64,000 bases of DNA from an uncultured Candidatus Saccharibacteria bacterium (GTDB lineage Bacteria; Patescibacteriota; Minisyncoccia; Phycocordibacterales; UBA6899): NCBI GenBank assembly GCA_964469335.1, contig CAYXYK010000001.1, positions 235,976 through 299,975 of the forward strand, given 5' to 3'. The translations under genes were made by a program, and so were the position numbers. The notes under the pieces are model-generated. The model was not told the DNA's origin. It did not search any database and worked only from the letters and a program-made list of their open reading frames with translations. Below, one piece after another: positions 8,027 to 63,932 of this stretch. Position 1 is the stretch's first letter, and each line of letters opens with the position of its first letter.

Positions 8027-8150
8027 CGAGGTCTATGGTGAGTGGTTAACGTATGCACATAGTATACCGCCCCGCATGTGTGCCGCAAAACTCAAGCAAG
8101 TTTGCTTCATGTCGGTCTATTTGCTAGGATACGAATCACGTGCGAAATAT

Positions 8151-8221
8151 GCGGGTATGGTTTAGTGGTAGAATGTCTGCCTTCCAAGCAGAAGACGGGA
8201 GTTCGATTCTCCCTACCCGCA
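8151..8221 (+). tRNA. tRNA-Gly (anticodon UCC)
   Basis: acceptor GCGGGTA/TACCCGC, T-arm GGGAG-TTCGATT-CTCCC, anticodon loop CTTCCAA (TCC); 71 nt. Confidence 0.9.
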
Positions 8222-8292
8222 CAGATTCAGAAATCAAAAGTCCTTACTGAGAAGTAAGGACTTTTGATTTCGTGCGGGTAGGGAGAATCGAA
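8202..8292. repeat. composite palindrome: 21-bp inverted duplicate of the tRNA-Gly 3' end flanking a 19-bp-stem terminator hairpin
   Basis: 8272-8292 GTGCGGGTAGGGAGAATCGAA is the exact reverse complement of 8202-8222; inner IR 8230-8248/8253-8271. Confidence 0.75.
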
Positions 8293-8404
8293 AGACGGAG
8301 CGGATGCCGAGCCAGCAGGCGAGGCCGCGAGTCGGGGTCGCAAGAATTTGTGAGTGGCGACGAACAAATTACTTGTGACCGATTCTCTGTGATACGATTA
8401 AATT

Positions 8405-8932: not shown

Positions 8933-8969
8933 CATATGTAAACCCTACTTTACATGCTATAATGCAGAT

Positions 8970-9497
8970 ATGACCCACTCCCACACCCTCCGCATTCTTC
9001 TTTCTGTACTGGTCGTCGCATTCGTCGTCTATCACTACTACCCACAGTTGCTTCAGAAGCCCGAACCGAACGCCGTCATGTTTTCCGTTACCGCTTCTTC
9101 CAGTCTTTCCGCAAGATCCAAACTCTCACCCGAAGCATATCGGGTCATGTATCAGTCCGGCACCGAGCGACCCTACACCAGTCTTTTACTAGAAGAGCAT
9201 CGCGGGGGGACGTATGTCAGTGCAGACACTGGACGACCACTTTTCCGTTCAGAAGATAAATTCGACTCCGGCACCGGTTGGCCATCGTTCGTGAAGCCGA
9301 TCACTCCAGATGCAGTCGTATACAATGTCGATGACACGCTGGGCGAAACTCGAACCGAGGTGCTCACTGGTGACACCCATGCGCACCTCGGACATGTGTT
9401 CGATGACGGCCCAAAAGATAGGGGAGGCAAGCGTTACTGCATGAACGGAGTTGCTCTCCGCTTCATCCCAGATTCTGCAACTACTACGACTCCATAA
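8970..9497 (+). CDS. msrB: peptide methionine sulfoxide reductase MsrB with N-terminal TM segment
   Basis: GTGWPSF ... RTEV ... HLGHVFDDGP ... RYCMN SelR/MsrB motifs; TATAAT box ends 6 nt before the ATG. Confidence 0.85.
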   Translation: MTHSHTLRILLSVLVVAFVVYHYYPQLLQKPEPNAVMFSVTASSSLSARSKLSPEAYRVMYQSGTERPYTSLLLEEHRGGTYVSADTGRPLFRSEDKFDSGTGWPSFVKPITPDAVVYNVDDTLGETRTEVLTGDTHAHLGHVFDDGPKDRGGKRYCMNGVALRFIPDSATTTTP

Positions 9498-9534
9498 GGC
9501 GAAGATAATACTCGCAGATGCACGGCGCGGGAAT

Positions 9535-9575
9535 GCGACTCGGTCAACGTACTCGAAGTACGTTGACCGAGTCGC
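9535..9575. repeat. perfect 18-bp inverted repeat with 5-nt loop (GCGACTCGGTCAACGTAC-TCGAA-GTACGTTGACCGAGTCGC)
   Basis: read directly; no T-run follows. Confidence 0.7.
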
Positions 9576-9620
9576 AAGGGTCCCGCAACAAAGCAGATGT
9601 GAGTATTTTGTTTGCCGAGA

Positions 9621-9654
9621 ACACAAAAACCACCCGAGGGTGGCTTTTGTGTTG
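9621..9654. terminator. bidirectional terminator between msrB (+) and hup (-)
   Basis: ACACAAAAACCACCC-GAG-GGTGGCTTTTGTGT hairpin flanked by A/T runs. Confidence 0.6.
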
Positions 9655-9673
9655 TATGTTTGTGAACCTCTGA

Positions 9674-9946
9674 CTATTTGACCGCGTCCTTGAGCGCTTT
9701 TGCAGCTCTGAACTTCGGAACGCGCATCGCTGCGACTTTGATGCTTTCGCCCGTGCGCGGATTGCGTGCGGTGCGTGCAGCGCGAGTCTTCACTGAGAAG
9801 ATGCCGAGACCTGCGATCGATACCTCGTCGCCCTTCTTGAGGCCGCCGGTGATAGATTCGATCATTGTCTCAACAGCCTGCTCTGCTGCGACTTTCGTGC
9901 CGCCGAGCTTCTCGTGGACTGCTTCTACAATTGACTGCTTGTTCAT
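9674..9946 (-). CDS. hup: HU-family DNA-binding protein
   Basis: 90 aa; MNKQSIVEAV...RNPRTGESIKV...KFRAAKALKDAV is a classical HU pattern. Confidence 0.9.
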   Translation of the reverse strand: MNKQSIVEAVHEKLGGTKVAAEQAVETMIESITGGLKKGDEVSIAGLGIFSVKTRAARTARNPRTGESIKVAAMRVPKFRAAKALKDAVK

Positions 9947-10144
9947 CGTATTAAGCAGATAGCTAATAAACTAGCCTGGTTAATCGCGAGCTACCGCGAA
10001 TAACTCTGCATGCAGAGGATTTAACCTCTCAAATCATTATATAGGATGGTCTTTTTCGCGCAACAGAGCCATATTTTCAGATTAGGAATCGCATCGCTTG
10101 TCAAAATAGACTTACACGATGCGTAGAGTCGGTGAACGAGAAGC

Positions 10145-10178
10145 AACAAAATACCGCTCTATTGAGCGGTATTTTGTT
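10145..10178 (-). terminator. terminator downstream of rny
   Basis: AATACCGCTC-TATT-GAGCGGTATT flanked by T/A runs. Confidence 0.6.
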
Positions 10179-10197
10179 GCAATTGGCAAAATATCCT

Positions 10198-11775
10198 TTA
10201 TCTTGCGTATTCGATGCAGCGAGTTTCGCGAATGACTGTGATCTTGATCTCGCCTGGGTATTTCAGCTCTTGTTCCACTTGGATGGCAATATCACGTGCG
10301 AGTGCCTGAGCCTCGATGTCGTTCATCGCTTGTGGAGTGACGAATACACGCACTTCACGTCCGGCTGCAAGCGCGTACGCTTTCTCGACCCCTGGTTTAT
10401 TTGTCGCGATCTTCTCAAGATCCTCGAGCTTCTTGATGTAGTTCTCGACCGATTCACGACGTGCACCCGGGCGTCCTCCTGAGATGGCATCTGCAGTCTG
10501 CACGATGATCGACTCGATCGTTTCGTACGGGTATTCCTCGTGGTGTGATTGCATCGCCTTTACGATGCGCTCGTCCGCACCGAATTTCTGCAGGATCTTG
10601 CGACCGATCTCAACATGGGTACCTTGCACCTCGTGGTCGAGTGCTTTGCCGATGTCATGGAGCAGTGCACCGGCTTTCGCGATCTGCACGTCCGCGCCGA
10701 GCTCTTCGGCAAGCATTCCTGCGATGTGACCCATCTCGATCGAGTGTTGGAGCACATTCTGTCCATAGCTGGTGCGGAAGTAGAGGCGTCCGAGGATGGA
10801 GATGATCTTCGGGTCGAGATTGAACACCCCACATTCGTACACTGCTTGCTCGCCCTTCTCCTTGATGATCTTGTTGATGTCACCCTTTGCCTTGTCGACC
10901 ATCTCCTCGATCTTCGAGGGCTGGATGCGTCCGTCGAGGATAAGGTTCTCGAGTGCGACCCTTGCGATCTGTCTGCGAACCGGGTCAAATGCCGAAATGA
11001 CGATCGTTCCCGGGGTGTCATCGACGATGAGTTCAACCCCTGCAATGCGCTCGAAAGTCCTTATATTCCGGCCTTCTTTACCGATGATCTTTCCTTTGAT
11101 CTCGTCATTCGGAATTACGACCGAGGTGGTCATGATGTCTCCTGCGGTCGACGCAGCGAGTCGCTGGATCGAAGTGGAGAGAATGTCTTTTGCCCGTCGA
11201 TCGAGCCGCTCGATGCCTTCGCGCTCGAGTTTTTGGAGTCTCACGCGGAAATCATCCTCGAAGCGCTCCTCGATCTTCTTTATCAGTGAGTTCTTCGCTT
11301 CTTCTTCGGTAAGGTGAGCGACGCGTTCGAGTTCAGATTCGACGGCTTTCTTTCGTTCCTCGATCTCGCTTTTGATGGCTTTCACTTCCTCTGCCTTGTT
11401 CTTGAACGACTGGAGTTCAGCTTCGATATCGAGCTGTTTCTTGTCGAGCATTTCTTCCTTACGAACAAGCCGTTCTTCGCTTTTTTTCCATTCGCGTTCC
11501 TTCTCTTTCTCGGCGGCACGGACCTGCTCCATCTGTCGCTCTACCTTCTTCTCTGATTCCTGGAGTATTTTCTGCGCGTCTTCCTTCGCAGTGAGCAGCA
11601 TCTGCTTCACTTCGATCTCTACTGAACCTTTCTTTCCTGCGCTCATTCCCCAGCGGAGTACATATCCGAGGATGATGCCGAAGATACCGCTCGCGGCTCC
11701 ATAGTAGACCATCTTGATGATGGAAATACCGCCGACAACTTCTGTATCGAGCATATGAATGTGATGATAGAACAC
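10198..11775 (-). CDS. rny: ribonuclease Y (TM-coiled coil-KH-HD)
   Basis: N-terminal TM, long EK-rich coiled coil, KH motif IIGKEGRNIR, HD domain HSIEMGHIAGMLAEELG...LLHDIGK. Confidence 0.9.
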   Translation of the reverse strand: MFYHHIHMLDTEVVGGISIIKMVYYGAASGIFGIILGYVLRWGMSAGKKGSVEIEVKQMLLTAKEDAQKILQESEKKVERQMEQVRAAEKEKEREWKKSEERLVRKEEMLDKKQLDIEAELQSFKNKAEEVKAIKSEIEERKKAVESELERVAHLTEEEAKNSLIKKIEERFEDDFRVRLQKLEREGIERLDRRAKDILSTSIQRLAASTAGDIMTTSVVIPNDEIKGKIIGKEGRNIRTFERIAGVELIVDDTPGTIVISAFDPVRRQIARVALENLILDGRIQPSKIEEMVDKAKGDINKIIKEKGEQAVYECGVFNLDPKIISILGRLYFRTSYGQNVLQHSIEMGHIAGMLAEELGADVQIAKAGALLHDIGKALDHEVQGTHVEIGRKILQKFGADERIVKAMQSHHEEYPYETIESIIVQTADAISGGRPGARRESVENYIKKLEDLEKIATNKPGVEKAYALAAGREVRVFVTPQAMNDIEAQALARDIAIQVEQELKYPGEIKITVIRETRCIEYAR

Positions 11776-12005
11776 ACAACCCTTTTGCGTTCTTGTTTGC
11801 GACCGAAGGTGGAGTAGTTACGACAGAAGAAGCACAGATACAGTCATCGCATATTGCCCAGGGAGTTCTTGTCGCATACCAAAAGAAAAAGAGGTGTGTT
11901 CGTGTTGTGAATAATGTCGAAAATCAAGCAATCGGCAAGGTCGTTTCTGGATAATGCCGATATTCACAATGTAGCAGATGGTGTTCGGGGTGTCTAATAA
12001 GAAAC

Positions 12006-44933: not shown

Positions 44934-46133
44934 ATGGCAGAAGCTCAAGTTTTTGATCGTTCAAAGCCGCATGTGAACGTCGGTACCATTGGTCACGTTG
45001 ACCACGGGAAGACCACGCTCACCGCTGCGATCTTACACGTGCTCCACATGGCTGGTAACAATGTGAAGATGAAGGGTGTCAATGAAATCGACTCCGCTCC
45101 TGAGGAGCGCGAGCGCGGTATCACCATCGCTCTCTCTCACAATGAGTACGAGACCAAGACTCGTCACTACGCGCACATCGATGCGCCTGGTCACGCAGAC
45201 TATATTAAGAACATGATCACCGGTGCCGCTCAGATGGACGGTGCGATCATCGTTGTAGCCGCAACTGACGGTGTGATGCCGCAGACTCGCGAGCACATCC
45301 TTCTTGCAAAGCAGGTCGGTGTTCCCAAGATCATCGTGTTCCTCAACAAGGTAGACATGGTCGATGACCAGGACCTCGTTGAGCTCGTTGAAGAGGAAGT
45401 TCGTGAACTCCTCACCAAGCAGGGTTTTGACGGTAAGAACTGCCCGGTCATCCGCGGTTCGGGCCTCAAGGCACTCGAGTCGACTTCGATCGAAGACCCG
45501 TATGCAAAGAAGGTCCTCGAGCTCGCAGACGCACTCGACACCTACATTCCTGTTCCTGTTCGCGATACAGACAAGCCGTTCCTTATGCCGGTCGAGGATA
45601 TCTTCTCGATTGAAGGACGCGGTACTGTCGCGACCGGACGCATCGAGCGCGGTGTATGTAAGGTTGGTCAGGAAGTCGAGATCGTCGGTTTCACAAAGAC
45701 CGCGAAGACTACCATCACCGGCATCGAAATGTTTAACAAGTCACTCCAGGAGGGTATGGCAGGAGACAACGCAGGTATTCTTCTCCGCGGTACCAAGAAG
45801 GAAGACATTACTCGCGGACAGGTGCTCGCAGCAACCGGATCGGTTACTCCGCACACTGACTTCGAGGCTGAGGTCTATATTCTCTCGAAAGAGGAAGGAG
45901 GCCGCCACACACCGTTCTTCTCAGGCTACAAACCGCAATTCTACATCCGCACTACTGACGTCACCGGTGAGGTTACGCTCAAGGAGGGTGTTGAGATGGT
46001 CATGCCGGGTGATACTGTTACCTTCAAGGTAAAGCTCATCGCTCCGGTCGCGCTTGAGGATGCAACCCGCTTCGCGATCCGCGAAGGAGGTCGCACTGTC
46101 GGTGCAGGTGTCGTTACCAAGATCGTCGCCTAG
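44934..46133 (+). CDS. tuf: elongation factor Tu
   Basis: [26 protein letters not shown] motifs; 399 aa. Confidence 0.97.
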
Positions 46134-46166
46134 TCGCGCGTCCCATTCTTAGAGAACATTGAAGTT

Positions 46167-46526
46167 ATGACCACTACTCCGGAACAGAAAAAGACAACCA
46201 AAGCAGTAAAGGCTGATGGTATCCAGAAGCTCCGCATTCGTGTACGCGCTTATGAGTACAAGATCCTCGACGCATCAGTGCGTCAGATCATGGACACTGC
46301 GCTCCGCTATGATGCGAAAGTCCTTGGACCGATTCCTCTGCCCACGCAGATCACCAAATATACAGTGAACCGCTCGACCTTCATCTACAAGGATGCACGC
46401 GAGCAGTTCGAAATGCGTATTCACAAGCGCCTTATCGATATCGTAAGCCCCACGCCGAAGATCATCGAAGCGCTCACGAACCTTACTCTACCTAGTGGAG
46501 TAAATATCGACGTGAAAATGATGTAA
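46167..46526 (+). CDS. rpsJ: 30S ribosomal protein S10 (with short N-terminal extension)
   Basis: IRIRVRAYEYKILD ... S10 core. Confidence 0.9.
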   Translation: MTTTPEQKKTTKAVKADGIQKLRIRVRAYEYKILDASVRQIMDTALRYDAKVLGPIPLPTQITKYTVNRSTFIYKDAREQFEMRIHKRLIDIVSPTPKIIEALTNLTLPSGVNIDVKMM

Positions 46527-46671
46527 TCGCACACGCGATACATCACCACAAGTTCTCTTTACGTTTTTGCACCATAGGCTACTCATTCCGCAAGATGAGT
46601 GGGCCTTATGTGCATGATGTAGACACTTCATTCCGGAGTGTGTGCGTGACTATCCCAACCCAAACCCAACC

Positions 46672-47292
46672 ATGAAATTCCTATTAGCAACCAAGCAGGA
46701 GATGACGCAGTACTTCGCCGAAGACGGCAAGTGCATCGCGGCAACTCTTCTCTCTGCAGGCCCGATCACCGTGACCGCCCTCCGAACAAAGGAGAAGGAT
46801 GGTTACGAGGCTGTTCAGGTCGGCTTCGGCACTCAACTTCCGAAGCGCGTCAACAAGGCGCAGCAGGGTGCACTCAAGGAGCTCGGTTCCTTCCGCTACA
46901 TGCGCGAATACCGCCCGAAGAGTGGCGCAGTCGACATCAAAGTCGGCGACAAAGTGACCGTCGAGGCATTCGCCCCCGGCGAAGACATCACCGTGACCGG
47001 CACCTCAAAGGGTAAAGGTTTCCAGGGTGTCGTGAAGCGTCACGGTTTCCACGGCGGACCTCGTTCACACGGTCAGAAGCATTCTGAGCGTGAACCAGGA
47101 TCCATCGGTGCGACCGGACCTCAGCGCGTCATCCCCGGTACTCGCATGGCAGGGCGCATGGGCTCCGACACCATTACGGTGAAGGGACTCAAAGTGCTCG
47201 CCGTCGATACTACAAACAATCTTCTTCTCGTGTCGGGAGCGATCCCGGGTCGTCGCGGGACATTGATCGAGATCAAGGCAACTAACGCATAA
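46672..47292 (+). CDS. rplC: 50S ribosomal protein L3
   Basis: start trimmed to MKFLLATKQEMTQ; GKGFQGVVKRHGF motif. Confidence 0.9.
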   Translation: MKFLLATKQEMTQYFAEDGKCIAATLLSAGPITVTALRTKEKDGYEAVQVGFGTQLPKRVNKAQQGALKELGSFRYMREYRPKSGAVDIKVGDKVTVEAFAPGEDITVTGTSKGKGFQGVVKRHGFHGGPRSHGQKHSEREPGSIGATGPQRVIPGTRMAGRMGSDTITVKGLKVLAVDTTNNLLLVSGAIPGRRGTLIEIKATNA

Positions 47293-47296
47293 TTGT

Positions 47297-48016
47297 ATGA
47301 CAACGAAAACTACAACCGCTAAGAAGCCTGTGAATCTTGAAGCAACTGTCTACACGACGGAAGGCAAGAAGTCAGGCTCAGTGACACTTTCAGAGAAAGT
47401 ATTCGGAGCAAAATGGAATGCAGATCTCGTTCACCAGGTGGTGGTCGCGATGCAAGCCAATGCGCGTCAGCCGATCGCGCACACCAAGGACCGTTCAGAG
47501 GTCCGCGGAGGTGGACGCAAACCTTGGGCACAGAAGGGAACCGGCCGTGCTCGTCACGGATCAAGCCGCTCGCCGATCTGGCGTCACGGTGGTATCACCC
47601 ATGGCCCTCGCAACGATCGTGATTTCTCTCAAAAACTCAACCGCAAGCAGAAGGTCGCCGCGCTCTACACCGTACTTTCCAAGAAGTGGAAGGAAGGCGA
47701 GATCCTCTTTGTCTCATCGGTCGCTCTCAAGGCTCCGAAGACCAAAGATGCGCGCACCATGCTCACGAACCTCGGTTCGATCGGTGGATTCGAGAAGCTC
47801 GCAGATCGCCGCAACAATGCAATGTACATGATCCTTCCTTCGGCAGATGCCAATGTGAAGAAGTCATTCCAGAACATGGGAAATGTACTCGTCGGAACAC
47901 TCAGCACACTCAATCCGGTCGATGTGCTGTCATACAAGTATCTCGTTCTTGCTGCTCCTGAGGAGGCCGTGAAGGCACTCGAAGCGAAGAGCGCGAAGAA
48001 AGAAGTCACCGCATAA
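47297..48016 (+). CDS. rplD: 50S ribosomal protein L4
   Basis: GGGRKPWAQKGTGRARHGS motif. Confidence 0.9.
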   Translation: MTTKTTTAKKPVNLEATVYTTEGKKSGSVTLSEKVFGAKWNADLVHQVVVAMQANARQPIAHTKDRSEVRGGGRKPWAQKGTGRARHGSSRSPIWRHGGITHGPRNDRDFSQKLNRKQKVAALYTVLSKKWKEGEILFVSSVALKAPKTKDARTMLTNLGSIGGFEKLADRRNNAMYMILPSADANVKKSFQNMGNVLVGTLSTLNPVDVLSYKYLVLAAPEEAVKALEAKSAKKEVTA

Positions 48017-48020
48017 TCCT

Positions 48021-48428
48021 ATGGCTATATTCAAGAAGACCACTGCGAAAGCAGCGTCAAAACCAAAGACAGAGAAAGTAGCGAAGGATGTCGTGGTCGC
48101 TGAGGTAGTAAAGGAAGTAAAAATCTCGAAGGCAGGCAAAGGCCTCCTCCTCGAGCAGGTGCTCCTCAATCCTCATGTCACCGAGAAGGCGTCAGACCTC
48201 TCCGAAAAGGGAGTATACGCATTCAACGTCAATCTTCGTGCCAACAAGGACCAGGTTACCCGCGCCGTGAAGCACTTTTTCAAAGTGACTCCGGTGAAGG
48301 TCGCCATGATCGTCAACAAGCCGAAGTACTCGCGCAACCCGCGTACCAACCGCGTACAGGTCAAGAAGGCCGCAATCAAGAAGGCACTTGTATACCTTAA
48401 GAAGGGCGATAAGATCGAGTTCGTGTAA
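48021..48428 (+). CDS. rplW: 50S ribosomal protein L23 with ~40-aa Lys/Ala-rich N-terminal extension
   Basis: core LLNPHVTEKASDLSEKGVYAFNV. Confidence 0.9.
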   Translation: MAIFKKTTAKAASKPKTEKVAKDVVVAEVVKEVKISKAGKGLLLEQVLLNPHVTEKASDLSEKGVYAFNVNLRANKDQVTRAVKHFFKVTPVKVAMIVNKPKYSRNPRTNRVQVKKAAIKKALVYLKKGDKIEFV

Positions 48429-48440
48429 ACGAAAAAACAT

Positions 48441-49286
48441 ATGAAATCATTCAAACCGTTAACTCCGTCACTGCGCAACACGATCCTCACACCCTACAAG
48501 CAGCTCCTCTCCGGTGACTCGAAAAAGAAGCCGAAGAATCTGATGAAGGGTCGCTCGTCGACCGGTGGCCGCAACAACCAGGGACGCATCACCATGCGTC
48601 ACATGGGAGGCGGCAACAAGAAAGCACTCCGCGTCGTCGACTTCAAGTTCGACAAGCGCGATGTGCCGGGAACTGTAGAGGCTGTCCAGTATGACCCCTT
48701 GCGCACCGCATTCGTCGCCCTCGTCGTCTACAAGGATGGAGAGCGCCGCTATATGGTCGCACAGAAGGGCATGAAGGCAGGCGACACATTTATCGTCTCT
48801 GAGAAGGCAACCCTTGATAAGTTCAACCGCACACAACTCAAGAAGATTCCGGTCGGTACATTCGTATCGAACGTCGAGGTCCAACCTGAGGGAGGTGCGA
48901 AGCTCGCTCGTGCGGCAGGAAACTTCATCGAAGTGATCGCCAACGACTTGGGTTACTCATTCCTCAAGATGCCGTCGTCAGAGGTCCGCAAGGTCTCCGA
49001 GAACTGCTGGGCAACCATCGGTGAGGTCTCGAACGATCAGCACAAGCTCCGCAACGAAGGTAAGGCAGGCCGCAACCGCTGGAAGGGCATCCGCCCGCAT
49101 GTCCGCGGTTCTGCGATGAACCCTGTAGATCACCCGCACGGAGGTGGTGAAGGTCGCATGGGACGTGGTCTACGCCGCGCCAAGACTAAGTGGGGTAAAC
49201 CTTCAGGCAAGGGCCAGAAGACCCGCTCGCCGAAGAAGTACTCGAACGTACACATTGTGTCGCGTCGCAAGGTCGGGAAGAAGTAA
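48441..49286 (+). CDS. rplB: 50S ribosomal protein L2
   Basis: GGGNKKALRVVDFKFDK, HPHGGGEG motifs; the usual rpsS-rplV-rpsC continuation is absent downstream. Confidence 0.95.
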   Translation: MKSFKPLTPSLRNTILTPYKQLLSGDSKKKPKNLMKGRSSTGGRNNQGRITMRHMGGGNKKALRVVDFKFDKRDVPGTVEAVQYDPLRTAFVALVVYKDGERRYMVAQKGMKAGDTFIVSEKATLDKFNRTQLKKIPVGTFVSNVEVQPEGGAKLARAAGNFIEVIANDLGYSFLKMPSSEVRKVSENCWATIGEVSNDQHKLRNEGKAGRNRWKGIRPHVRGSAMNPVDHPHGGGEGRMGRGLRRAKTKWGKPSGKGQKTRSPKKYSNVHIVSRRKVGKK

Positions 49287-49297
49287 ATTTTCTTACC

Positions 49298-49330
49298 AAA
49301 CAAAAACCGCTGAAAAGCGGTTTTTGTTTT
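49298..49330. terminator. bidirectional terminator directly after rplB
   Basis: AAACAAAAACCGCTGAAAAGCGGTTTTTGTTTT. Confidence 0.65.
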
Positions 49331-49345
49331 GCCGAGAAAAGAAAT

Positions 49346-49981
49346 TTACAACTGCTTCAAGATGAGTGCTTTGAGGGATTCGGGGGAGAGGTCGGAGTGG
49401 GTGATGCGGAGGAGGGGGAAGTGGGCGGAGAGTAGAATGCGTTCGACTTCCTCGTCGCGCTCTGTGCGGTCTTCGCGCTCATGAGTTGCGTCGTCGAGTT
49501 CGATCACAAGTTTCGGATTGACCCAGACTTTGTCGCAGAGGAGGAAGTCGACAGACTTCTGATTGATATGGCGCATCGCAGCATTCCAGTTTTGACCTTT
49601 GATTTTCCAGTCGATGAAGGTGCTGATGTGCACTTGCGGGAAAATGTAATATTGGTCTCCGGCCGCTTGGTTGAGCGCGTTGAATGCATCATGCTCCGCT
49701 TTCGTCATCACGAACTGCTTAGTCTCGTAGGAGTAGAGTGATTTCGCCATCTCTCCGCTGCTGTCGGCATAATTCCAGGCGCCCCAGATGAATTCGATCA
49801 GTGGAACGATAATGACGGTAAAGAAATTGCGTTTGCCGTTCCACAGAGTCTTATAATGCAGATATTTCTTGCGCAGGATCAAGAATAATACCGTTCCGAT
49901 GATCAAGAAGAACGCAAGAGCGCCGAGTAGCACCAGTCCGACGATCTCTAGCGCAGTTGTGACGGCATGTGATATGTCCAT
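49346..49981 (-). CDS. membrane-anchored protein with DUF559/DUF2726-like PD-(D/E)xK (Vsr-fold) nuclease-like domain
   Basis: N-terminal TM (LEIVGLVLLGALAFFLIIGTVLFLIL); motif SVDFLLCDKVWVNPKLVIELDDATHERED resembles the D...(I/V)E(L/V)DG..H signature of these families. Confidence 0.55.
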   Translation of the reverse strand: MDISHAVTTALEIVGLVLLGALAFFLIIGTVLFLILRKKYLHYKTLWNGKRNFFTVIIVPLIEFIWGAWNYADSSGEMAKSLYSYETKQFVMTKAEHDAFNALNQAAGDQYYIFPQVHISTFIDWKIKGQNWNAAMRHINQKSVDFLLCDKVWVNPKLVIELDDATHEREDRTERDEEVERILLSAHFPLLRITHSDLSPESLKALILKQL

Positions 49982-50075
49982 ACGTGAAGCATAGCAAAGG
50001 CGGGGGTTTGTACAAATGTTCGAACCGTTTCAAGGGAACGGTTCGAACGCCGGGTTACTATGCTATGCTTACTCC

Positions 50076-50384
50076 ATGACACACGAAGGGAATGAGGGAG
50101 TTCCGACTGGGAAAGAGGAGGTGATCGAGGCGCTCTTGCGTGACCCAGAGAACCTTGCTCCACTCCATGAGTACATGGCGGCACGAGAGGCTGCGTGCAG
50201 GAATGGGGCGGATAATCTCCGGCTCACGCTTGATCTCCTTGATATCTATATTGCAGGAGGTGAAGCGTTCCGTGATGCGGCATGGGAGACACTTGATGCG
50301 GCGTTCGATCAGGCAGAAGGCGAAGCCGATGACACAATTATGGCTGAGCTCCGCTTGCGACAGGCGAAATTGCAGGGTGAATAA
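50076..50384 (+). CDS. small acidic hypothetical protein
   Basis: ORF track (start uncertain: 50016 or 50076). Confidence 0.35.
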   Translation: MTHEGNEGVPTGKEEVIEALLRDPENLAPLHEYMAAREAACRNGADNLRLTLDLLDIYIAGGEAFRDAAWETLDAAFDQAEGEADDTIMAELRLRQAKLQGE

Positions 50385-50814: not shown

Positions 50815-51270
50815 TCAGGGTGAGGCCCGCTTGCGAGGACGGACGTTGGGAGCGTTCTCGCCGCAATAGACCTCCGTTGCCGATCCTTCGCGCTTTGCGA
50901 ACAGTTCGAAGAACAGGATGTCCTGACCGTTGTCGCCGATGGTGACGGTGACGCGGTAGCCGGTCCAGCCATGCTTTTCGACGCCGATGATGTCAGCAAA
51001 AAGTGCCATCAGCTGTGCGTCGTTGTTCCTCTCGTTTCGCACCCAGTCGGTGAGATGGCGGTCGCCGTCCTCGCCGGTGTGTTGCATGAGGATGCTGCGC
51101 CACTGGTCGAGGTCGTGGTCCATCGCGCGGTCGCTGTAGCGCGAGGCGCGTCCCTCATCGTCTTCGTAGTCGAGAGGGAACTGGAACTGCCGAAGCAGCA
51201 TGTGGTTGGCATCCCCACGCGAGCCGAGGCGGCTGAAGTCGTGGGGTTCTGCGGGGTACATTCGTGCCAT
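50815..51270 (-). CDS. hypothetical protein (151 aa)
   Basis: ORF track; stop lies 22 bp upstream of next gene start; no family recognised. Confidence 0.45.
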   Translation of the reverse strand: MARMYPAEPHDFSRLGSRGDANHMLLRQFQFPLDYEDDEGRASRYSDRAMDHDLDQWRSILMQHTGEDGDRHLTDWVRNERNNDAQLMALFADIIGVEKHGWTGYRVTVTIGDNGQDILFFELFAKREGSATEVYCGENAPNVRPRKRASP

Positions 51271-51868: not shown

Positions 51869-51986
51869 GGGAACTCCCTGTAAAGTTCAGCTGTGCTCAC
51901 CTTACCACCCATAAAAAGGTCCGCAACTCAGGTGACTCGCCATGTTGTGTACGGTATGCTAGCCTCAAGTCAGAAAGGAGCTCGGC

Positions 51987-52220
51987 ATGAAAATGGGATT
52001 ACACACCGAAAAGGGAAGATTCGTCTTCAGTGCAGGCAAGAGTCAAAATGTCGACGACGGCCTGCGAAGAATATCATCACCGAGTTCGATACTCGGTCTT
52101 GCGGTACTTGCGCAGCAGCACACTACCGCGCAGGAGTTCGTACTTTCGTCGGGGGAGAAGTTCGAGTGCCCGTCAAAAGAACATGTGCTCGCACTTGCCA
52201 TCCGCATGATCTATGCTTGA
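51987..52220 (+). CDS. small hypothetical protein (77 aa)
   Basis: AAGGAG 6 nt upstream of ATG 51987. Confidence 0.4.
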   Translation: MKMGLHTEKGRFVFSAGKSQNVDDGLRRISSPSSILGLAVLAQQHTTAQEFVLSSGEKFECPSKEHVLALAIRMIYA

Positions 52221-52279
52221 CGCAACCCACTGCAAGCATAGGATAGAAATGTTCCGTTCAACCACCGAAGGAGACCGAC

Positions 52280-52459
52280 ATGCCGCACGCAGTTGCCAGT
52301 GTGAAGGAAGAACGCCAGCTCGCGTTCGAGAGGGCGAAGGAGGGAATTGACCCCGCAATCGTCGATCGCATCATGAAGGGACTCCCGGTCCCAGGCGACT
52401 CGTCCGGCCGACTGCTCGTCCTGCGCCAAGCCTGGGCCGCATATCGCGACTGCCTGTAG
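52280..52459 (+). CDS. small hypothetical protein (59 aa, below ORF-track cutoff)
   Basis: manual translation MPHAVASVKEERQLAFERAKEGIDPAIVDRIMKGLPVPGDSSGRLLVLRQAWAAYRDCL; GGAG RBS; terminator CACCCGC...GCGGGTG + T8 at 52460-52505. Confidence 0.4.
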   Translation: MPHAVASVKEERQLAFERAKEGIDPAIVDRIMKGLPVPGDSSGRLLVLRQAWAAYRDCL

Positions 52460-52565
52460 TCGCTGCAGCACCCGCCTCCTCGAGAGAGCGGGTGTGTTTT
52501 TTTTGTATAGATAACAGCATGACCCCGTGTGGGGGCATGCTGTTATCTGCTCTTCACTATATTTC

Positions 52566-52754
52566 CTACGGACGCATGCTGTCGGTGAGTGCGCGGCGTC
52601 GCTCAGAGATCTCCTTAGCACGCTTCTTGAGCCTTTCCCCGTAACCGGTCGCTCTCCCCAGCTCTTTGTCCAAAAGGAGATACCTGTGTTCTTCGCTCAC
52701 TCGTTCGAAAGCGCCACCGTCTTCTGCATTACTTGTGATGATACTCTTTGTCAT
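52566..52754 (-). CDS. small charged protein, paralog 1 of a 3-member tandem family
   Basis: MTKSIITSNAEDGGAFERVSEEHRYLLLDKELGRATGYGERLKKRAKEISERRRALTDSMRP; conserved leader TATTATCATTCATACACCCACAGT directly precedes the ATG. Confidence 0.45.
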   Translation of the reverse strand: MTKSIITSNAEDGGAFERVSEEHRYLLLDKELGRATGYGERLKKRAKEISERRRALTDSMRP

Positions 52755-53020
52755 ACTGTGGGTGTATGAATGATAATATCGAGCATACAACAGTGATGAT
52801 GAAAAAATTGTGAAACGGTTCAGGCAAGTAGGCGTTTCGCGAGTGTTCGTGCGTCGCGTCCTTGCTTCGCTGCACTTTCTGCGCGTTCGGCTCGAGCATG
52901 TTCGTCCTTCTCAGATTGCTGTCTCTTCCCGATCGCTATTTGTGCTTCACGCTCTTCATGGTCATGTGTTTCCCGGAGCAATTGCTCAGATGTTTTTGTG
53001 GCAAGCATACTTGGGAGCTA

Positions 53021-53183
53021 GGGACGCAAACTCAGCGTCAATGCCTTCCGTCGGTGTTCTATCTCTTTTGCATGCTCCTTCATCTGTATCTGATAACTCT
53101 TGGTGAACTCAAGACTACGTTCAGATAGTCTCCGCATCTGTTCTCTCTGTTCTTCTCCCCCCGAACTCTTTTTTATATACATA
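53021..53183 (-). CDS. small charged protein, paralog 2 (54 aa, below ORF-track cutoff)
   Basis: manual translation MYIKKSSGGEEQREQMRRLSERSLEFTKSYQIQMKEHAKEIEHRRKALTLSLRP; same leader sequence upstream; C-terminus HAKEIEHRRKALTLSLRP parallels paralog 1. Confidence 0.4.
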
Positions 53184-53260
53184 CCTGTGGGTGTATGAAT
53201 GAATAATATCCGGACATGATACCGAAGCTTGGTGAAAGAAAAATGAAATGCACGCTGCGT

Positions 53261-53617
53261 TCACTTGGTGTGTCCTGCCGTACGCCGGTGTTCCAATTCC
53301 TTCTCATGTTCACTCACATGCATCTGGTGGGTCAGTTCCGCCTCTTCCGCACGTTCCTTATGTATCCGAGCGCTCTCTTTCAGTAGCTCGTCATGCTCTT
53401 TTTCGAATCCCTCATCCCGCTCCTCCTTAGCTCGGCTGGTCGCGCTTCTCTGCTCGCTGTCCGCTTCCGCTGTCCGCTCTTTCTTCTCCCGACCTTCGTT
53501 CTCTTTTGCTCTGCGACTATCTCCGCGTGCAACCTCTTCTTCTCGGGCAACTCGTGCGCGACTTTTCTCGGCGAGTAGCCGTTCTTCAGTCGCTCTTACT
53601 TCGGTTTTTGTAGACAT
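53261..53617 (-). CDS. charged K/E/R-rich protein, paralog 3 (118 aa)
   Basis: C-terminus EHEKELEHRRTAGHTK related to paralogs 1/2; upstream ATTATTCATATCC resembles the shared leader. Confidence 0.45.
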   Translation of the reverse strand: MSTKTEVRATEERLLAEKSRARVAREEEVARGDSRRAKENEGREKKERTAEADSEQRSATSRAKEERDEGFEKEHDELLKESARIHKERAEEAELTHQMHVSEHEKELEHRRTAGHTK

Positions 53618-53628
53618 GGATATGAATA

Positions 53629-53976
53629 ATGGATAATGACCCCATCATAGCGAGCCTGAGTGAGGAGAAAGTGAGTGAAGCTTCTTCATACCTTGTGCTT
53701 TCTGTCGCGAGGCGTAGCATGAGTGGGTCCTTCAAGGAGAAGACCATGTTGCTCTTTTCACGACTCATCGTGCATTTGCTCCCGGCTCCGAACATCATGA
53801 CCGCCCCGAATGCTCTATACCCTCGTCTCTACGACTCTTGCATGAGCGAAGTGGTGCGCTGGCACCGGTCGTGCCTCGCCCGCCTCATCTTCGAGTATCC
53901 GCTCGAGGAAGCCGACCGTGCGATTTCCGCGCATAGATTCCCGGATATGGAAGAGCGGCACCTCTCGCTCTCGTGA
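53629..53976 (+). CDS. hypothetical protein
   Basis: ORF track; terminator GCTCTTC-TC-GAAGAGC + T-run at 53985-54020. Confidence 0.4.
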   Translation: MDNDPIIASLSEEKVSEASSYLVLSVARRSMSGSFKEKTMLLFSRLIVHLLPAPNIMTAPNALYPRLYDSCMSEVVRWHRSCLARLIFEYPLEEADRAISAHRFPDMEERHLSLS

Positions 53977-54039
53977 ACCGAAATGACAAAGAGCTCTTCT
54001 CGAAGAGCCCTTTTTGTTTCATTCGTCTTATGAAGAGAT

Positions 54040-54072
54040 AAAACGAACCCCGCACTCATGTGGTGCGGGGTG
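54040..54072 (-). terminator. palindromic terminator, copy 3 (variant: AAAACGAACCCCGCACTCATGTGGTGCGGGGTG)
   Basis: same AAAACG-ACCCCGC...GCGGGGTG architecture; follows 3' end of gene 54085-54285. Confidence 0.55.
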
Positions 54073-54084
54073 TATGGCTCCAGA

Positions 54085-54285
54085 TCAGCCGATCTTGGTG
54101 CCTTCTGGGCTGTAGACGTGGGCGATGATGCCTTGGCTGAGGAGGTCCTTCGCGAGCGTACGAGCCGCTTCTTCCGTTTCTTTGGTGGGGACACAGAGTC
54201 TCCCTTCTCCGTCCTCATCCCTGTATGCGACAGAGAATTGTCCAGGATTGGTCACTGCATCTTTCGGGGGTTCGGTCCAAGCCAT
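54085..54285 (-). CDS. small hypothetical protein (66 aa)
   Basis: ORF track. Confidence 0.4.
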   Translation of the reverse strand: MAWTEPPKDAVTNPGQFSVAYRDEDGEGRLCVPTKETEEAARTLAKDLLSQGIIAHVYSPEGTKIG

Positions 54286-54447
54286 GCCGGGTTCTCCTTG
54301 TAAAATCCTTTTTCATTTTCTTCGAATTTCACTCCGTGTCAATGTGAAACTTCCCGCCGCGGCGTTACAGGGGAATCATTCTTGAGTTATTCCCTTCGTC
54401 ATGTTTGGATGTACAAGGATTATTCATGTTCACCTGAAGGGGAAATC

Positions 54448-54657
54448 ATGGGATATGATCTCAATCAGTCGTCGGTCCTGAGTCGTCGGCTGTCTCAAAA
54501 GTCGACCGTGCAGCGAGACATCAGTCCATATGACCTTTCTGCGGTCGCCGCTGCAGCTAGAGCACTTGCGGCGCGGCCCGATCCGCCGCCTCAGCTTGAG
54601 AGTCTCTATGATCTCGACACCATCGCCCGCATCGATCGCCATTTTGGTCGCCGCTAG
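54448..54657 (+). CDS. small hypothetical protein
   Basis: start trimmed to MGYDLNQ; terminator GGGAGC-ATCC-GCTCCC + T-run at 54650-54690. Confidence 0.35.
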   Translation: MGYDLNQSSVLSRRLSQKSTVQRDISPYDLSAVAAAARALAARPDPPPQLESLYDLDTIARIDRHFGRR

Positions 54658-54767
54658 AAAAGGGAGCATCCGCTCCCTTTATTTCTTGCACGAGTATTAT
54701 TGACATAAATCAATAATACCGTATAATATACAAAGCTGTATCCCTTGGATCCCTGAAAGGAATCACC

Positions 54768-59944: not shown

Positions 59945-60898
59945 CTATCCGATCAACACCGAGCGCATCGATATACTCCCGTGCGCAATGCCTTCGACCG
60001 GAAAGCTCGGTCCTTCGTCTTCTTCCTCTAGCCCTAATATATAGAGCAGCGGCCAGTAGTGGTCCGGCGTCGGGATCGAAAGCGCAGCAGCATGTCCGAG
60101 CCCTTCGTAGTTCAAGAGTGTGGTGTGGTCATGTTTCAATATCAGGTCCTTCGCAGCATTGTCGAAATCCGCTGCCCATGCGAATTCTCTCGCACCCTCA
60201 TTGAAATCGATCATGCTGAGGTTGTGCACGATATTGCCGCTCCCAAGGATCAGCACTCCGCGTCTCCGCAGTATCGCGAGTTCTTTCGCGAGTGCATAGT
60301 GCTCTTTGTGTGAACGGGTCATGTCGATACTCATTTGAAACACCGGTATTTCGGCGGCGGGGTACATCCGATGCAGCACTATCCATGTGCCATGGTCGAT
60401 ACCCCAATCGATGTCAGGGCGGACTACGGTGCCAGTGACCGCCTCGCGGGTAGCATTCGCATAGACGGGTGATCCCGGGCATGGATAGTTGAGATCGTAG
60501 AGCTGTTTCGGGAAGCCCCAGAAATCATGGATCGTGCGTGGGTGTTCGGCTATATGCACCTCTGTCCCGCGAGTGAGCCAATGTGCGGAGATCGACAGGA
60601 TTGCTACTGGCTTCGGTAGCGATTTCCCGAGGGTTTCCCATCCTAACGAAAAGGCGTTGTCTTCGATCCCGTTCATTGGAGAGCCATGCCCAACAAATAA
60701 AGCCGGCATACGCTTTGTTTTCGGGAGGTCACTCAGTTTTGCCAATAGTCCAAGGCCAGTCATCCGTCCATTGTCTCGCCCGATCGGACCAGAGTCAATT
60801 TTCGCCCCCATCCCCAAAGGGGTGGATAACCCCATATCGATGTGAGCTGTAGCGTATATAATGATAAGTACGAGTATTTCGCACCTTGCGCGCTGCAT
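59945..60898 (-). CDS. LigB-type extradiol ring-cleavage dioxygenase class III (YgiD-like) with N-terminal signal-like extension
   Basis: MPALFVGHGSPMN start of catalytic domain, HWLTRG, LILGSGNIVHNL motifs. Confidence 0.75.
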   Translation of the reverse strand: MQRARCEILVLIIIYATAHIDMGLSTPLGMGAKIDSGPIGRDNGRMTGLGLLAKLSDLPKTKRMPALFVGHGSPMNGIEDNAFSLGWETLGKSLPKPVAILSISAHWLTRGTEVHIAEHPRTIHDFWGFPKQLYDLNYPCPGSPVYANATREAVTGTVVRPDIDWGIDHGTWIVLHRMYPAAEIPVFQMSIDMTRSHKEHYALAKELAILRRRGVLILGSGNIVHNLSMIDFNEGAREFAWAADFDNAAKDLILKHDHTTLLNYEGLGHAAALSIPTPDHYWPLLYILGLEEEDEGPSFPVEGIAHGSISMRSVLIG

Positions 60899-61330
60899 GT
60901 GTTCTCATGTTTTGAGAAACGAACAGGACGTAGTGTGTGAAAAATTCCATTCCATGTGGTTCTCTCACACTACGTCCCTACAGTTCAAATGATGAAGTGA
61001 CGGAAAAAACGGCGCCGAGTCAGATGAATTGTGCATCTTTCGTATCAACACATGTCGAGCCATCCTTGTATCTACAGCAACAAGAGAGAAGGACGGTGAA
61101 GAGAAACGAGAGGGACAAATTCTTTGTGCAAGGTGTAAAAATGTAGAGAGCCCAAGCTGCAACGCGCCACGTTGTTTTCGGACAGAGAAGGTCCTGTAGA
61201 CCTCACCGCCCGGAATGCACGCTCATCGAAAGATGGCACCAAGCAAACAAAACACCGTACCCGGCAAGGTGCGGTGTTTTGATTTGCTGAAAAGGAAAGC
61301 GCGCACCAAGAGGTGCGCGCTTTGTTGCGA

Positions 61331-61693
61331 CTAGAGGAACATCCAGATGAACGAGAAGGCGATGACCGCATACAGCAACCACGATCGATCCTTGAGTGCT
61401 GTTGCCCAGGGTCTGTCGACCCAGCTGGTGACATCTTCCCAGACGAAGTAAATGATCAGGGCTGAAACGGCGCCGGAAGCGAACTTCCCGAGTAGCGGCA
61501 GTCCGAATACGAACAGCAGCTTACTGAGGGCAACAGTCGCAATCACTGCGATGAGTTGGTCGCGGATGATCGGGGGGCGGATTCCCCACGGCGGCTCACC
61601 GAGCTTTCCGTATCCGAAGTAGCTCGGTATCCACCAAGCGAGGACGATCAACAGCCCGTATCCGAACAAGATGCCGAGGATATGCATGAACAT
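61331..61693 (-). CDS. hypothetical multi-TM membrane protein
   Basis: ORF track; hairpin terminators at 61254-61325 downstream. Confidence 0.5.
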   Translation of the reverse strand: MFMHILGILFGYGLLIVLAWWIPSYFGYGKLGEPPWGIRPPIIRDQLIAVIATVALSKLLFVFGLPLLGKFASGAVSALIIYFVWEDVTSWVDRPWATALKDRSWLLYAVIAFSFIWMFL

Positions 61694-61755
61694 GAGAGGT
61701 CTCCTGTGAAGTCCAGCATAAAAATAGCAAGCAAGACTATTCTGTCAACACAAAG

Positions 61756-62808
61756 CTATTTGATCAGCATTCCGTCACCGAACGAGTAAAAACGGAAATT
61801 GTTCGCGATCGCGATCTCATAGAGATCAAGGATGCGGCGTTTCGCCCCCTTGTGCTCGAGGAAAGCATCAACGAGAAGCATCAGCGATGATTTTGGTACA
61901 TGGAAATTGGTTATGAGCGCGTCAGCTACCTTGAATCGATACGGAGGGAATATGAAGATATCCGTTCTGTCCTCGCGCGGAGTGATGAGCGCTTCACTAC
62001 TACGCACGCTTGCCGCAGATTCAAGCGTGCGTAGCGCGGTCGTACCTACGGGGATGATCGGCGTGTGCGCACGGTGAGCCGTGTCGATGATCTTCGCCGC
62101 TGTTTTGCCGATCATGTAGTATTCGGTGAAAAGTTTCTTTGATCGGATATTCGATTCGTCGATCGGGGCGAATGTTCCCGCTCCGACATGAAGAGTGACT
62201 TCGGTGCGACGGACTCCGCTGTGGTCGAGCTTCCGTAAGAGTCTGTTGGTGAAATGTAGACTTGCGGTCGGCGCCGCTACCGATGCCGGATGTTTTGCGA
62301 GCACGCTTTGATACTTCTCTCGGAGCGTCGGCTCTGAGAGCGGTGAGCGTTTGATGTACGGAGGGATCGGTGTGACTCCTTCCTTTGCGAGCAGTTCCCA
62401 CAGCTGGACCCTCTCTACGCTCGGCTTGAAAAAGAAGAATTGTTCATCTTGCCTGACTGTTTCGAGTAAAGCTCCTGATCGAAAATACAATTTTGCACCA
62501 ACAGTAAGTTTTCTGTCGACGATGCCCTTTACGAGGGTGTCTTCTGGTCGCAGCTCGTTCATTTGTAGGAATACCTGGATCTTCCCACCGCTCTCTTTGG
62601 TGAGCCATAAGCGCGCAGGCACGACCTTTGTGTCATTGAAGACCAAGGTGCTTTTCGGGGGTACGTGCCTGTCGAGATGAAGGAAGGTATCGAATTCCAC
62701 AGTATCCGTAGTAGTGTCATAGATGAACAATCTACTGCTGTCGCGTGGCGAAGCAGGTGTGGAAGCGATCAGTCTCTGGGGAAGTTGATAATCATACTGC
62801 TCGAGCAT
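61756..62808 (-). CDS. queA: S-adenosylmethionine:tRNA ribosyltransferase-isomerase
   Basis: N-terminus DYQLPQRLIASTPASPRDSSRLFIY and overall QueA layout. Confidence 0.9.
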   Translation of the reverse strand: MLEQYDYQLPQRLIASTPASPRDSSRLFIYDTTTDTVEFDTFLHLDRHVPPKSTLVFNDTKVVPARLWLTKESGGKIQVFLQMNELRPEDTLVKGIVDRKLTVGAKLYFRSGALLETVRQDEQFFFFKPSVERVQLWELLAKEGVTPIPPYIKRSPLSEPTLREKYQSVLAKHPASVAAPTASLHFTNRLLRKLDHSGVRRTEVTLHVGAGTFAPIDESNIRSKKLFTEYYMIGKTAAKIIDTAHRAHTPIIPVGTTALRTLESAASVRSSEALITPREDRTDIFIFPPYRFKVADALITNFHVPKSSLMLLVDAFLEHKGAKRRILDLYEIAIANNFRFYSFGDGMLIK

Positions 62809-62924
62809 GGAAATAATGTAGCAATTTATTCATTCTCTGCAATAGAACCACTTCGAGAACAGCTTTTACCTGAATATGCTGTCTAGGGATGGCTCTGCGT
62901 ACTGTGGTAGAATTTTGCCATTGT

Positions 62925-63932
62925 ATGAAACCCAGTTTTCCTATATTCGTAGTTTCGGTGCTACTTGGCATGCTGATCGGCGGCTCGGGTGTCTATATGG
63001 CGATGCAGGTTCCTCCCTCCGTGACTCTTAGCGGAGCGCTTCGTGAAGACATCACCAACTACCGCTTCATCGATCCGCTGCTTGCGTGTAATCCTCCTGA
63101 GGCGACCTCAGGTAGGTACAAGGAACTTGACGATAGCCTCCTCGACCTCGTCGCCAAGATAAAGGAAGAGGGAAGGGCGACGACTGTCTCGCTGTATTTC
63201 CAGGAGTATCCCAGTGGACGCTGGGTGGGAATCGACGAGAGTCATCAATACGATCCAGCCAGCTTGCTCAAGATCGTATTGATGATCGCTTATTTCAGAG
63301 ATGAAGAACTGCACCCGGGCTCACTGCAGAAGTCGTACACTTACTCCAAGGAATATGCCGATATCCATACACTCATACCATTCGATGTGGATTCAGCACT
63401 TATAGTAGGGAAGAAATATACAGCAGACGAATTGATCCGCTCGATGATCATCGAATCTGACAACGGTGCGAAAAATGTACTGTTAGACAATGTGAATCAG
63501 TCAACGATCGAAGCTGTTTACCGGGATCTTAAGATCCCCGCACCGTCCGCAGTGGTACCATATACGATTTCACCAAGACAGTACTCGCTTTTCTTCCGAA
63601 TTCTCTATAATGCGACGTATCTTAACCGCGCTTCGTCAGAAAAGGCAATAAGTATCCTGGCACAGGCGAAATACTCGGACGGTTTGGTTGCCGGACTACC
63701 AAAAAACGTTACAGTTGCTCATAAATTCGGTGAACACGTGAACGGAGATCCCACCAAAGGTATTGATTCGGTAGAACTCCACGATTGTGGGTTGGTTTAT
63801 GGTCCCAATCTGCCCTATTTCTTGTGTGTAATGACCACAGGGAAGAGCCTTACTGGCCTACAGTCAGCAATACAGGACATATCTCGTACTGTGTATACCG
63901 CGCTCGATACGAACATTTCCCCGCAGAACTAA
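62925..63932 (+). CDS. class A beta-lactamase-like serine hydrolase (membrane-anchored)
   Basis: SxxK (ASLLK), SDN (IIESDNGAKNVLLD) motifs, HKFG in place of KTG; start trimmed to MKPSFPIFVV TM. Confidence 0.7.
   Translation: MKPSFPIFVVSVLLGMLIGGSGVYMAMQVPPSVTLSGALREDITNYRFIDPLLACNPPEATSGRYKELDDSLLDLVAKIKEEGRATTVSLYFQEYPSGRWVGIDESHQYDPASLLKIVLMIAYFRDEELHPGSLQKSYTYSKEYADIHTLIPFDVDSALIVGKKYTADELIRSMIIESDNGAKNVLLDNVNQSTIEAVYRDLKIPAPSAVVPYTISPRQYSLFFRILYNATYLNRASSEKAISILAQAKYSDGLVAGLPKNVTVAHKFGEHVNGDPTKGIDSVELHDCGLVYGPNLPYFLCVMTTGKSLTGLQSAIQDISRTVYTALDTNISPQN

Follow-up and report, generated by a model that had tools for sequence, protein, structure and literature searches.

What is encoded by the gene that faces rplB across a short spacer in the 64,000-nucleotide stretch of contig CAYXYK010000001.1 analysed here (the window), and does it serve as the effector of a defence island, as an original prediction from the letters alone had suggested? 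The open reading frame (ORF) is present on the minus strand and adjoins rplB, as that prediction described it, and the 211-residue product is a clear member of a known but uncharacterised family, DUF2726, with an additional helix specific to its subfamily. With high confidence, comparison with its relatives points to a gene that is intact, is transcribed on its own and codes for a small bitopic membrane protein, in which a predicted cytoplasm-facing domain of ~120 residues, of the DUF2726 type and from the Vsr/DUF559 branch, has lost none of the candidate metal-binding or general-base residues. The gene stands alone at a variable site and cannot be shown to supply the effector of a defence system. 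Related loci are cited below by their L numbers.

The family assignment is carried by a Pfam match to PF10881 (DUF2726; E=4.9e-29; 101.1 bits against a cut-off of 24.7) across residues 89-207, which covers positions 2-123 of the 126 in the model and lies above the gathering score, together with a weaker, overlapping match to DUF559 (E=8.5e-5; 22.8 bits, cut-off 20.6). This bears out the DUF559/DUF2726/Vsr-type assignment that had been made beforehand, and Pfam gave no other domain. VSR, DUF559 and DUF2726 constitute a clade of the PD-(D/E)xK nucleases in the classification of Steczkiewicz et al. 2012, where the function of DUF2726 is uncharacterised (PMC3424549). The AlphaFold2 (AF2) model of the protein (mean predicted local distance difference test score 85.7) contains the restriction-endonuclease-like alpha-beta-beta-beta-alpha-beta core expected of DUF2726, as well as a helix at residues 3-47. 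In common with PF10881 the protein possesses a full-length domain of the same length, the same order of secondary structure elements and the D...ExDD..H...RD signature, but the subfamily of 205-217 residues to which it belongs is longer by ~45 residues, which make up a basic linker and another hydrophobic helix. Other searches with the 211-residue protein returned little: there was no Pfam match to PF03852 (Vsr) at E<=1, no relative in a sequence-profile search of the PDB, and in NCBIfam only DDP3, below threshold (15.8 bits against a cut-off of 140), the literature on which yielded nothing usable. The exact protein has no record in the assembly index searched.

The family is large. At 50% identity, its members form 5160 clusters at E<=1e-3 and 1145 at the stricter E<=1e-10. 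A relative is present in at least 549 species-representative genomes, and nearly all of the 80 closest belong to Patescibacteria. The prevailing architecture of the closest relatives is a single N-terminal transmembrane (TM) helix followed by the DUF2726 domain (160-190 residues), whilst the 205-217-residue subfamily forms one cluster at 50% identity and was found only downstream of rplB. A phage origin was considered and set aside, as viral contigs hold distant relatives alone (<=45% identity). The ratio of nonsynonymous to synonymous substitution (dN/dS) is 0.08 against both the 96%-identical orthologue of L001 and the 93%-identical orthologue of L252, and the gene, being intact and apparently under purifying selection, is evidently functional.

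The putative active site is fully conserved. Across an alignment of 29 homologues (26-96% identity), residues E96, K142, D145, E161, L162, D163, D164, H167, R172, R175 and D176 are invariant, and the acidic and histidine residues among them (E96, D145, E161, D163, H167 and D176) are the candidate catalytic residues. The signature of DUF2726 is recognised as an aspartate in strand beta2 (D145), ExDD in beta3 (E161, D163 and D164), a histidine (H167) and RD in the next helix (R175 and D176); the VDFLLCDK...PKLVIELDDATHERED motif corresponds to residues 144-171. An E-D-x-H-D catalytic set has been described for Vsr and I-Bth0305I (PMC3239194), and the order E96/D145/E161/D163/H167/D176 would match it, with an extra acidic residue at the position of Vsr Phe62 and a spacing of nine residues from the histidine to the final aspartate.

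Outside this core, the DUF2726 protein differs from its better known relatives. Vsr (1cw0) contains a Zn site and intercalating tryptophans that are not found in the DUF2726 protein, and is a soluble enzyme partnered by a Dcm-type cytosine methyltransferase, whereas the DUF2726 protein is predicted to be membrane-anchored and no methyltransferase is encoded by the adjacent ORFs scanned, the whole window not having been scanned for dcm. I-Bth0305I (3r3p) has a NUMOD/helix-turn-helix (HTH) region and an intron context, in place of which the DUF2726 protein carries a TM anchor; its gene lies in a chromosomal setting that is collinear with L252, unlike the introns, inteins or free-standing phage genes in which EDxHD homing endonucleases reside. 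The TM anchor likewise sets it apart from the DUF559 protein NGO0050 (3hrl).

The anchor itself is strongly predicted. An N-terminal TM helix had been noted earlier, and the segment concerned has a Kyte-Doolittle score of 2.91 and a summed Hessa scale value of -4.7 kcal/mol; it is preceded by an acidic tail of 12 residues and followed by a very basic linker, RKKYLHYKTLWNGKR. Its N-terminal flank holds no lysine or arginine and its C-terminal flank five, a bias that is widespread in the family: 63 of the homologues have a TM segment predicted at the N-terminus, and 61 of these have 0-1 such residues on the N-terminal side (two in the remaining 2/63), and 54 have 3-7 on the C-terminal side (0-2 in 9/63). 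Based on these flank charges and the positive-inside rule, an N-out/C-in layout is predicted, which would have the nuclease domain face the cytoplasm. Residues 53-71 form a second hydrophobic helix, weaker than the first and overlooked in the original prediction, with a Kyte-Doolittle score below 1.6, a Hessa sum of +5.1 kcal/mol and a conserved proline and glutamate. It is confined to the 205-217-residue subfamily and is missing from the 166-168-residue orthologues of L007, L009 and L011. Because of its unfavourable insertion energy (+5 kcal/mol), and because these helix-less orthologues occupy the same genomic slot, the second helix probably does not span the membrane but is interfacial or re-entrant. 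An extracytoplasmic topology, as of a surface nuclease, which the second helix had brought to mind, was rejected as the default on the same two grounds.

The gene is equipped with transcription signals of its own (Table 1). Directly before the start codon lies an extended -10 box, TGCTATGCT, which is kept in L001, L251, L004, L002, L247, L249 and L250 and is the sole conserved upstream element among orthologues that share 55-96% protein identity. At least 18 ORFs of the window share this arrangement of box and start codon, and for this reason leaderless-type promoters appear to be the norm in the source organism. In general form the box reads TGNTAnnnT, and its distance to the start codon, 6-8 nucleotides (nt) and at most 13 nt, leaves no space for a Shine-Dalgarno sequence; examples among the 18 sites are found at 3160, 8405, 8970, 15338(-), 24868, 29336, 41278, 42406, 49981(-), 50076, 56131 and 62808(-). 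At the other end, the stop codons of rplB and the DUF2726 gene are 59 nt apart and the spacer forms one hairpin between an A-run and a T-run, with a folding energy of -24.2 kcal/mol on the plus strand (z=-6.4) and -23.8 kcal/mol on the minus strand (z=-5.95); none of 200 shuffled spacers was as stable. This hairpin, which was not listed by a consensus terminator scanner, is retained in the close relatives L001 and L251 with an altered loop and one added C-G pair. The earlier claim that the two genes converge on a common terminator thus stands and, since the DUF2726 gene has both its own promoter and this shared terminator, it is monocistronic. The intergenic region on the promoter side also contains a perfect 12-bp inverted repeat that occurs nowhere else in the window (chance expectation 0). 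This repeat was entertained as an operator and rejected: it has two mismatches in L001, half of it is deleted in L251, and a regulatory role is doubtful because it is not conserved there. Across the window, a scan with Rfam returned two tRNAs alone, both distant from the locus.

Table 1. Coordinates of features at the rplB junction in the window, with defence candidates that lie beside orthologues in relatives
Feature	Position or locus	Strand	Basis or remark
rplB, last gene of the truncated S10 operon	48441..49286	+	ORF; Pfam annotation of identical genes in L001
Bidirectional intrinsic-terminator-like hairpin, common to rplB and the DUF2726 gene	49297..49331		RNA folding
DUF2726 gene, 211 aa, ATG start	49346..49981	-	ORF, Pfam, dN/dS, AF2 model
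DUF2726 nuclease-like domain, residues 89-207	49361..49717	-	Pfam, alignment
Second hydrophobic helix (codons), residues 53-71, FFTVIIVPLIEFIWGAWNY	49769..49825	-	Hydrophobicity, homologue comparison
TM helix 1 (codons), residues ~13-36, predicted membrane anchor	49874..49945	-	Hydrophobicity, flank charges
Extended -10 box TGCTATGCT	49988..49996	-	6 nt upstream of the DUF2726 ATG; leaderless-type transcript
Perfect 12-bp inverted repeat GTTCGAACCGTT / AACGGTTCGAAC, 7-nt spacer	50018..50048		Divergent intergenic region
Small acidic protein gene, 102 aa, pI 4.3, divergent from the DUF2726 gene	50076..50384	+	ORF
AbiJ-like gene beside orthologue	L250		E=2.5e-9
PDC-S33 gene beside orthologue	L002		E=6.8e-125
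PD-T7-4-like DUF4145 gene beside orthologue	L004		E=3.5e-7

The setting of the gene is an interrupted ribosomal operon. In the window, the order tuf-rpsJ-rplC-rplD-rplW-rplB (44934-49286, plus strand) ends at rplB, and rpsS, rplV, rpsC and rplP were not found anywhere in the 64 kb; in L002, this block resumes 10 kb past rplB. The host lineage is a Lloydbacteria-like group of Patescibacteria, within the Candidate Phyla Radiation (CPR), in which the S10 operon is broken after rplB. Linkage of a DUF2726 gene to rplB was observed in 10 of 87 loci, all of which, including one of Candidatus Lloydbacteria, encode an EF-Tu 91-100% identical to that of the window. Wherever a downstream flank is visible, the two-helix subfamily lies 3' of rplB (the window, L001, L251, L252, L002, L004-6, L247/248, L250 and L099), whilst the contig of L249 (P0013) stops 58 nt past the DUF2726 gene and offers no flank to read. 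Conversely, a search anchored on rplB, which sampled 11 distinct contigs of the lineage with 2-8 kb of downstream sequence, found the DUF2726 gene in only two of them and rpsS in none. The gene is therefore accessory, and stands first in a stretch that varies between strains and starts exactly at the rplB terminator. In L090, its place is taken by a cassette for a DnaG-type zinc-ribbon protein and a GH5 glycosidase, which adjoins the same PLD-domain block.

Sequence divergence changes abruptly at this point. Comparison with L001 gives a nucleotide identity of 99.3-100% for the ribosomal genes (synonymous divergence, dS, 0-0.026; 0.01-0.03 in tuf, rplD and rplB), as against 91.8% for the DUF2726 gene (dS 0.34), and the very stop codon of rplB is where the mismatches per 100 nt rise from 0-1 to 10-14. 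Relative to L252, the region from 49.3 to 60 kb is wholly collinear. Because of this collinearity, the variable segment is one inherited within the species-level group, although its edge at rplB, where mismatches against L001 jump, is a recombination breakpoint. A local variable patch was also seen inside the operon, where rplC (46800-47000) differs from L001 by an 18-nt indel and nine clustered mismatches in otherwise ~100% identical surroundings.

The far side of the variable segment is formed by LigB, QueA and a beta-lactamase-like gene (59945-63932), with counterparts at 57-2196 in L006 and 4565-5395 in L002; as this flank recurs in relatives, the segment can be taken as bounded by rplB and queA, and it measures ~12.4 kb in the window and ~7.8 kb in L006. 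Within it, an ORF for 151 residues with reasonable codon usage (50815-51270, minus strand) is missing from the otherwise collinear L252, leaving a gap of ~400 nt, and is a strain-specific insertion or deletion. A further ~2.8 kb (51900-54700) contains no ORF of convincing codon usage and no match in Pfam, PADLOC or Rfam, is collinear with L252 at 75-90% nucleotide identity, and may consist of non-coding DNA or contain genes that are decayed or very small. In related CPR lineages, the distance from rplB to rpsS ranges from ~50 nt to more than 8 kb, with a mixed cargo that includes Fpg, diacylglycerol (DAG) kinase, superoxide dismutase (SOD), a protease, transporters and beta-helix proteins. A generalised defence hotspot at this junction across the CPR was considered and rejected, since most of what is inserted there in other lineages is housekeeping cargo (Fpg, DAG kinase, SOD, protease, transporter). 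In L063 (Yanofskybacteria), an insertion of ~4.5 kb between rpsJ and rplC (7437-11929) carries a DUF2726 gene and several unannotated ORFs, which makes it the second ribosomal operon seen to be split by cargo with a member of the family.

A functional parallel, and an experimental precedent, is offered by SNIPE, an N-out, single-pass membrane nuclease whose cytoplasmic GIY-YIG domain cleaves phage DNA during injection (PMC13190303). The TM anchor of SNIPE prevents self-cleavage; without it SNIPE cuts the host chromosome, and some of its homologues have two TM segments (PMC13190303). The layout predicted for the DUF2726 protein, in which one strong TM helix separates an outer N-terminus from a nuclease domain in the cytoplasm, is like that of SNIPE, and its gene too stands alone. 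By analogy, the DUF2726 protein could be a solo, membrane-confined, Mg2+-dependent DNA endonuclease, which would cut DNA as it arrives at the inner face of the membrane, be it injected by phage, conjugative or transforming, whilst its tether would hold it off the bulk chromosome. We infer that this confinement reading is the most economical one, and propose it tentatively, at somewhat less than even chances. It draws on the fold and its conserved candidate catalytic residues, the selection on the gene, the predicted topology, the accessory and variable location and the defence genes beside some relatives (see below), as well as on the SNIPE precedent. The resemblance would be one of functional analogy and not of homology: SNIPE combines GIY-YIG with DUF4041, whilst the much smaller DUF2726 protein has an unrelated PD-(D/E)xK domain without DUF4041, and in a search of it for the SNIPE domains Pfam returned DUF2726 and DUF559 alone and no PADLOC model matched.

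A number of observations weigh against this proposal. At the level of the protein, the 211 residues contain no sensor or extra DNA-binding domain comparable to the DUF4041 of SNIPE, and the topology is a rule-based prediction alone. The correspondence with the catalytic residues of Vsr is one that we infer, because an hhalign comparison of the family alignment with E. coli Vsr (its sequence verified against 1cw0) was not significant (probability 0.2). The literature found on DUF2726 consists of annotations and surveys, with no experiment on any DUF2726 protein. At the level of the locus, PADLOC (PADLOC-DB 2.0) gave no match for the DUF2726 protein or for the nine ORFs at 50.0-58.0 kb, and neither Pfam nor PADLOC recognised a defence gene among the neighbours in the window, where the families identified by Pfam are two receiver-domain proteins (response regulators), LemA, a TPM phosphatase, LigB, QueA and a beta-lactamase-like protein. 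Across 75 related loci no recurrent partner gene was found, and the 150 immediately flanking proteins fall into 103 Pfam families of mostly ordinary genes, RNase J being the commonest (4-5 loci). Nor is the gene a recent acquisition, since it is collinear with L252 at ordinary divergence, with a dS of 0.47 that is approximately twice the 0.21-0.26 of rplD and rplB.

Among the alternatives, the one that survives best is a nuclease for DNA uptake or nucleotide salvage, which would process transforming DNA for recycling in CPR bacteria that depend on imported nucleic acids. The size of the family, the concentration of its closest members in Patescibacteria, the conserved membrane anchor and the strong conservation of the sequence (dN/dS 0.08) all favour such a role, but it is nevertheless unlikely, given that the predicted topology is cytoplasmic rather than on the cell surface, that no com or pil genes occur among the 25 commonest neighbour families and that the gene is patchy in its own lineage (2/11 contigs at the rplB site). 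Vsr-type enzymes, moreover, act on duplex DNA, whereas competence systems deliver single strands.

A housekeeping role in nucleic-acid metabolism, either as a membrane-associated repair or recombination nuclease or as a RAP-like protein that binds or processes RNA, is quite improbable. It would accord with the strong purifying selection, with the ribosomal protein genes that adjoin the gene in its lineage and with RNase J as the commonest single neighbour (4-5/150), but the rplB linkage is limited to one lineage (10/87 loci) and most rplB-anchored contigs do not have the gene. RAP domains, which are RNA-binding domains of organelles, have the same Vsr-like fold, and for that reason a match to them is not specific; identity with the DUF2726 protein is 11-13%, with large root-mean-square deviation values, and RAP/FASTKD proteins are eukaryotic organellar proteins with helical repeat arrays, whereas the DUF2726 protein has no helical repeats. 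It also keeps the full acidic and histidine catalytic set, and there is neither a Vsr match in Pfam nor a dcm partner among the adjacent ORFs scanned.

The original prediction, that the protein may act as the island's effector, is read here as a multigene defence system in which a neighbouring sensor or regulator would activate the nuclease; it is not supported in the window and is considered very unlikely. In its favour, defence systems commonly employ PD-(D/E)xK-clan nuclease domains as effectors, and in other bacteria AbiJ N-terminal modules occur in fusion with DUF2726 domains (PMC3710099). Conflict genes are present among the 150 neighbours, including GmrSD (3), SIR2 (2), HNH (2), serine recombinases (3), RelA_SpoT (2) and Eco57I/MmeI-type genes of type IIG restriction-modification, and restriction-modification, SIR2, GmrSD or recombinase genes make up approximately one-tenth of the neighbours elsewhere. 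Moreover, in three members of the lineage a single-gene defence candidate is wedged between the orthologue and rplB (Table 1). A defence link is thus weakly suggested by the neighbours of relatives. However, these adjacent candidates differ from genome to genome and each is a single gene, no neighbour is conserved in the lineage, and the DUF2726 gene is monocistronic, with the PADLOC and recurrent-partner searches described above having returned nothing.

A small acidic gene that diverges from the DUF2726 gene also counts in favour of a multigene system. It has a TGCTATGCT box 6 nt before its ATG and a dN/dS of 0.07, and a homologue adjoins the DUF2726 gene in L001, L251, L252 and L004-6. Its product has a sub-threshold match to CATRA-N alone in Pfam and three homologues in the database, and it does not adjoin the gene in L002, L247, L250, L099, L007 or L009, whilst in L011 it lies 6 kb away. 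Because the linkage holds in no more than ~4 of 10 distinct contexts and homologues are so few, it is not an obligate partner, and its candidacy as an immunity or partner protein was rejected.

Finally, a selfish or toxin-like element, whether a free-standing homing-type endonuclease or a toxin that persists at the rplB junction and drives recombination, could account for the sharp recombination boundary at the gene edge, for the DUF2726 gene within the rpsJ-rplC insertion of L063, for the kinship with I-Bth0305I, a homing endonuclease that is the nearest characterised structural relative, and for a parallel with nuclease genes that reportedly mark phage exchange boundaries (PMC10055350), but is likewise very unlikely in view of the TM anchor in place of a sequence-specific DNA-binding module (Pfam found no NUMOD or HTH), the stable collinearity with L252, the lack of a flanking intron, intein, recombinase or direct repeats in the window and the distance of the viral relatives (<=45% identity).

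The more unusual facts about this gene are contextual, namely the split of the S10 operon after rplB and the variable spacing from rplB to rpsS, and its practical value is as a marker of the variable junction at which the operon is divided. A broader possibility, which is less likely than not, is that TM-anchored DUF2726 proteins, above all those of Patescibacteria, represent an extensive class of single-gene immune nucleases that has gone unrecognised and that would combine a Vsr-type core with discrimination of self from non-self by membrane confinement, and for which the junction between rplB and rpsS in these CPR lineages would be a preferred landing site. If the idea of membrane confinement were right, a very common protein without an assigned function would gain a role as a minimal immune nuclease of ~165-210 residues, in organisms whose genomes are tiny and in which few defence systems have been recognised, and the principle established for SNIPE would extend to a second nuclease fold.
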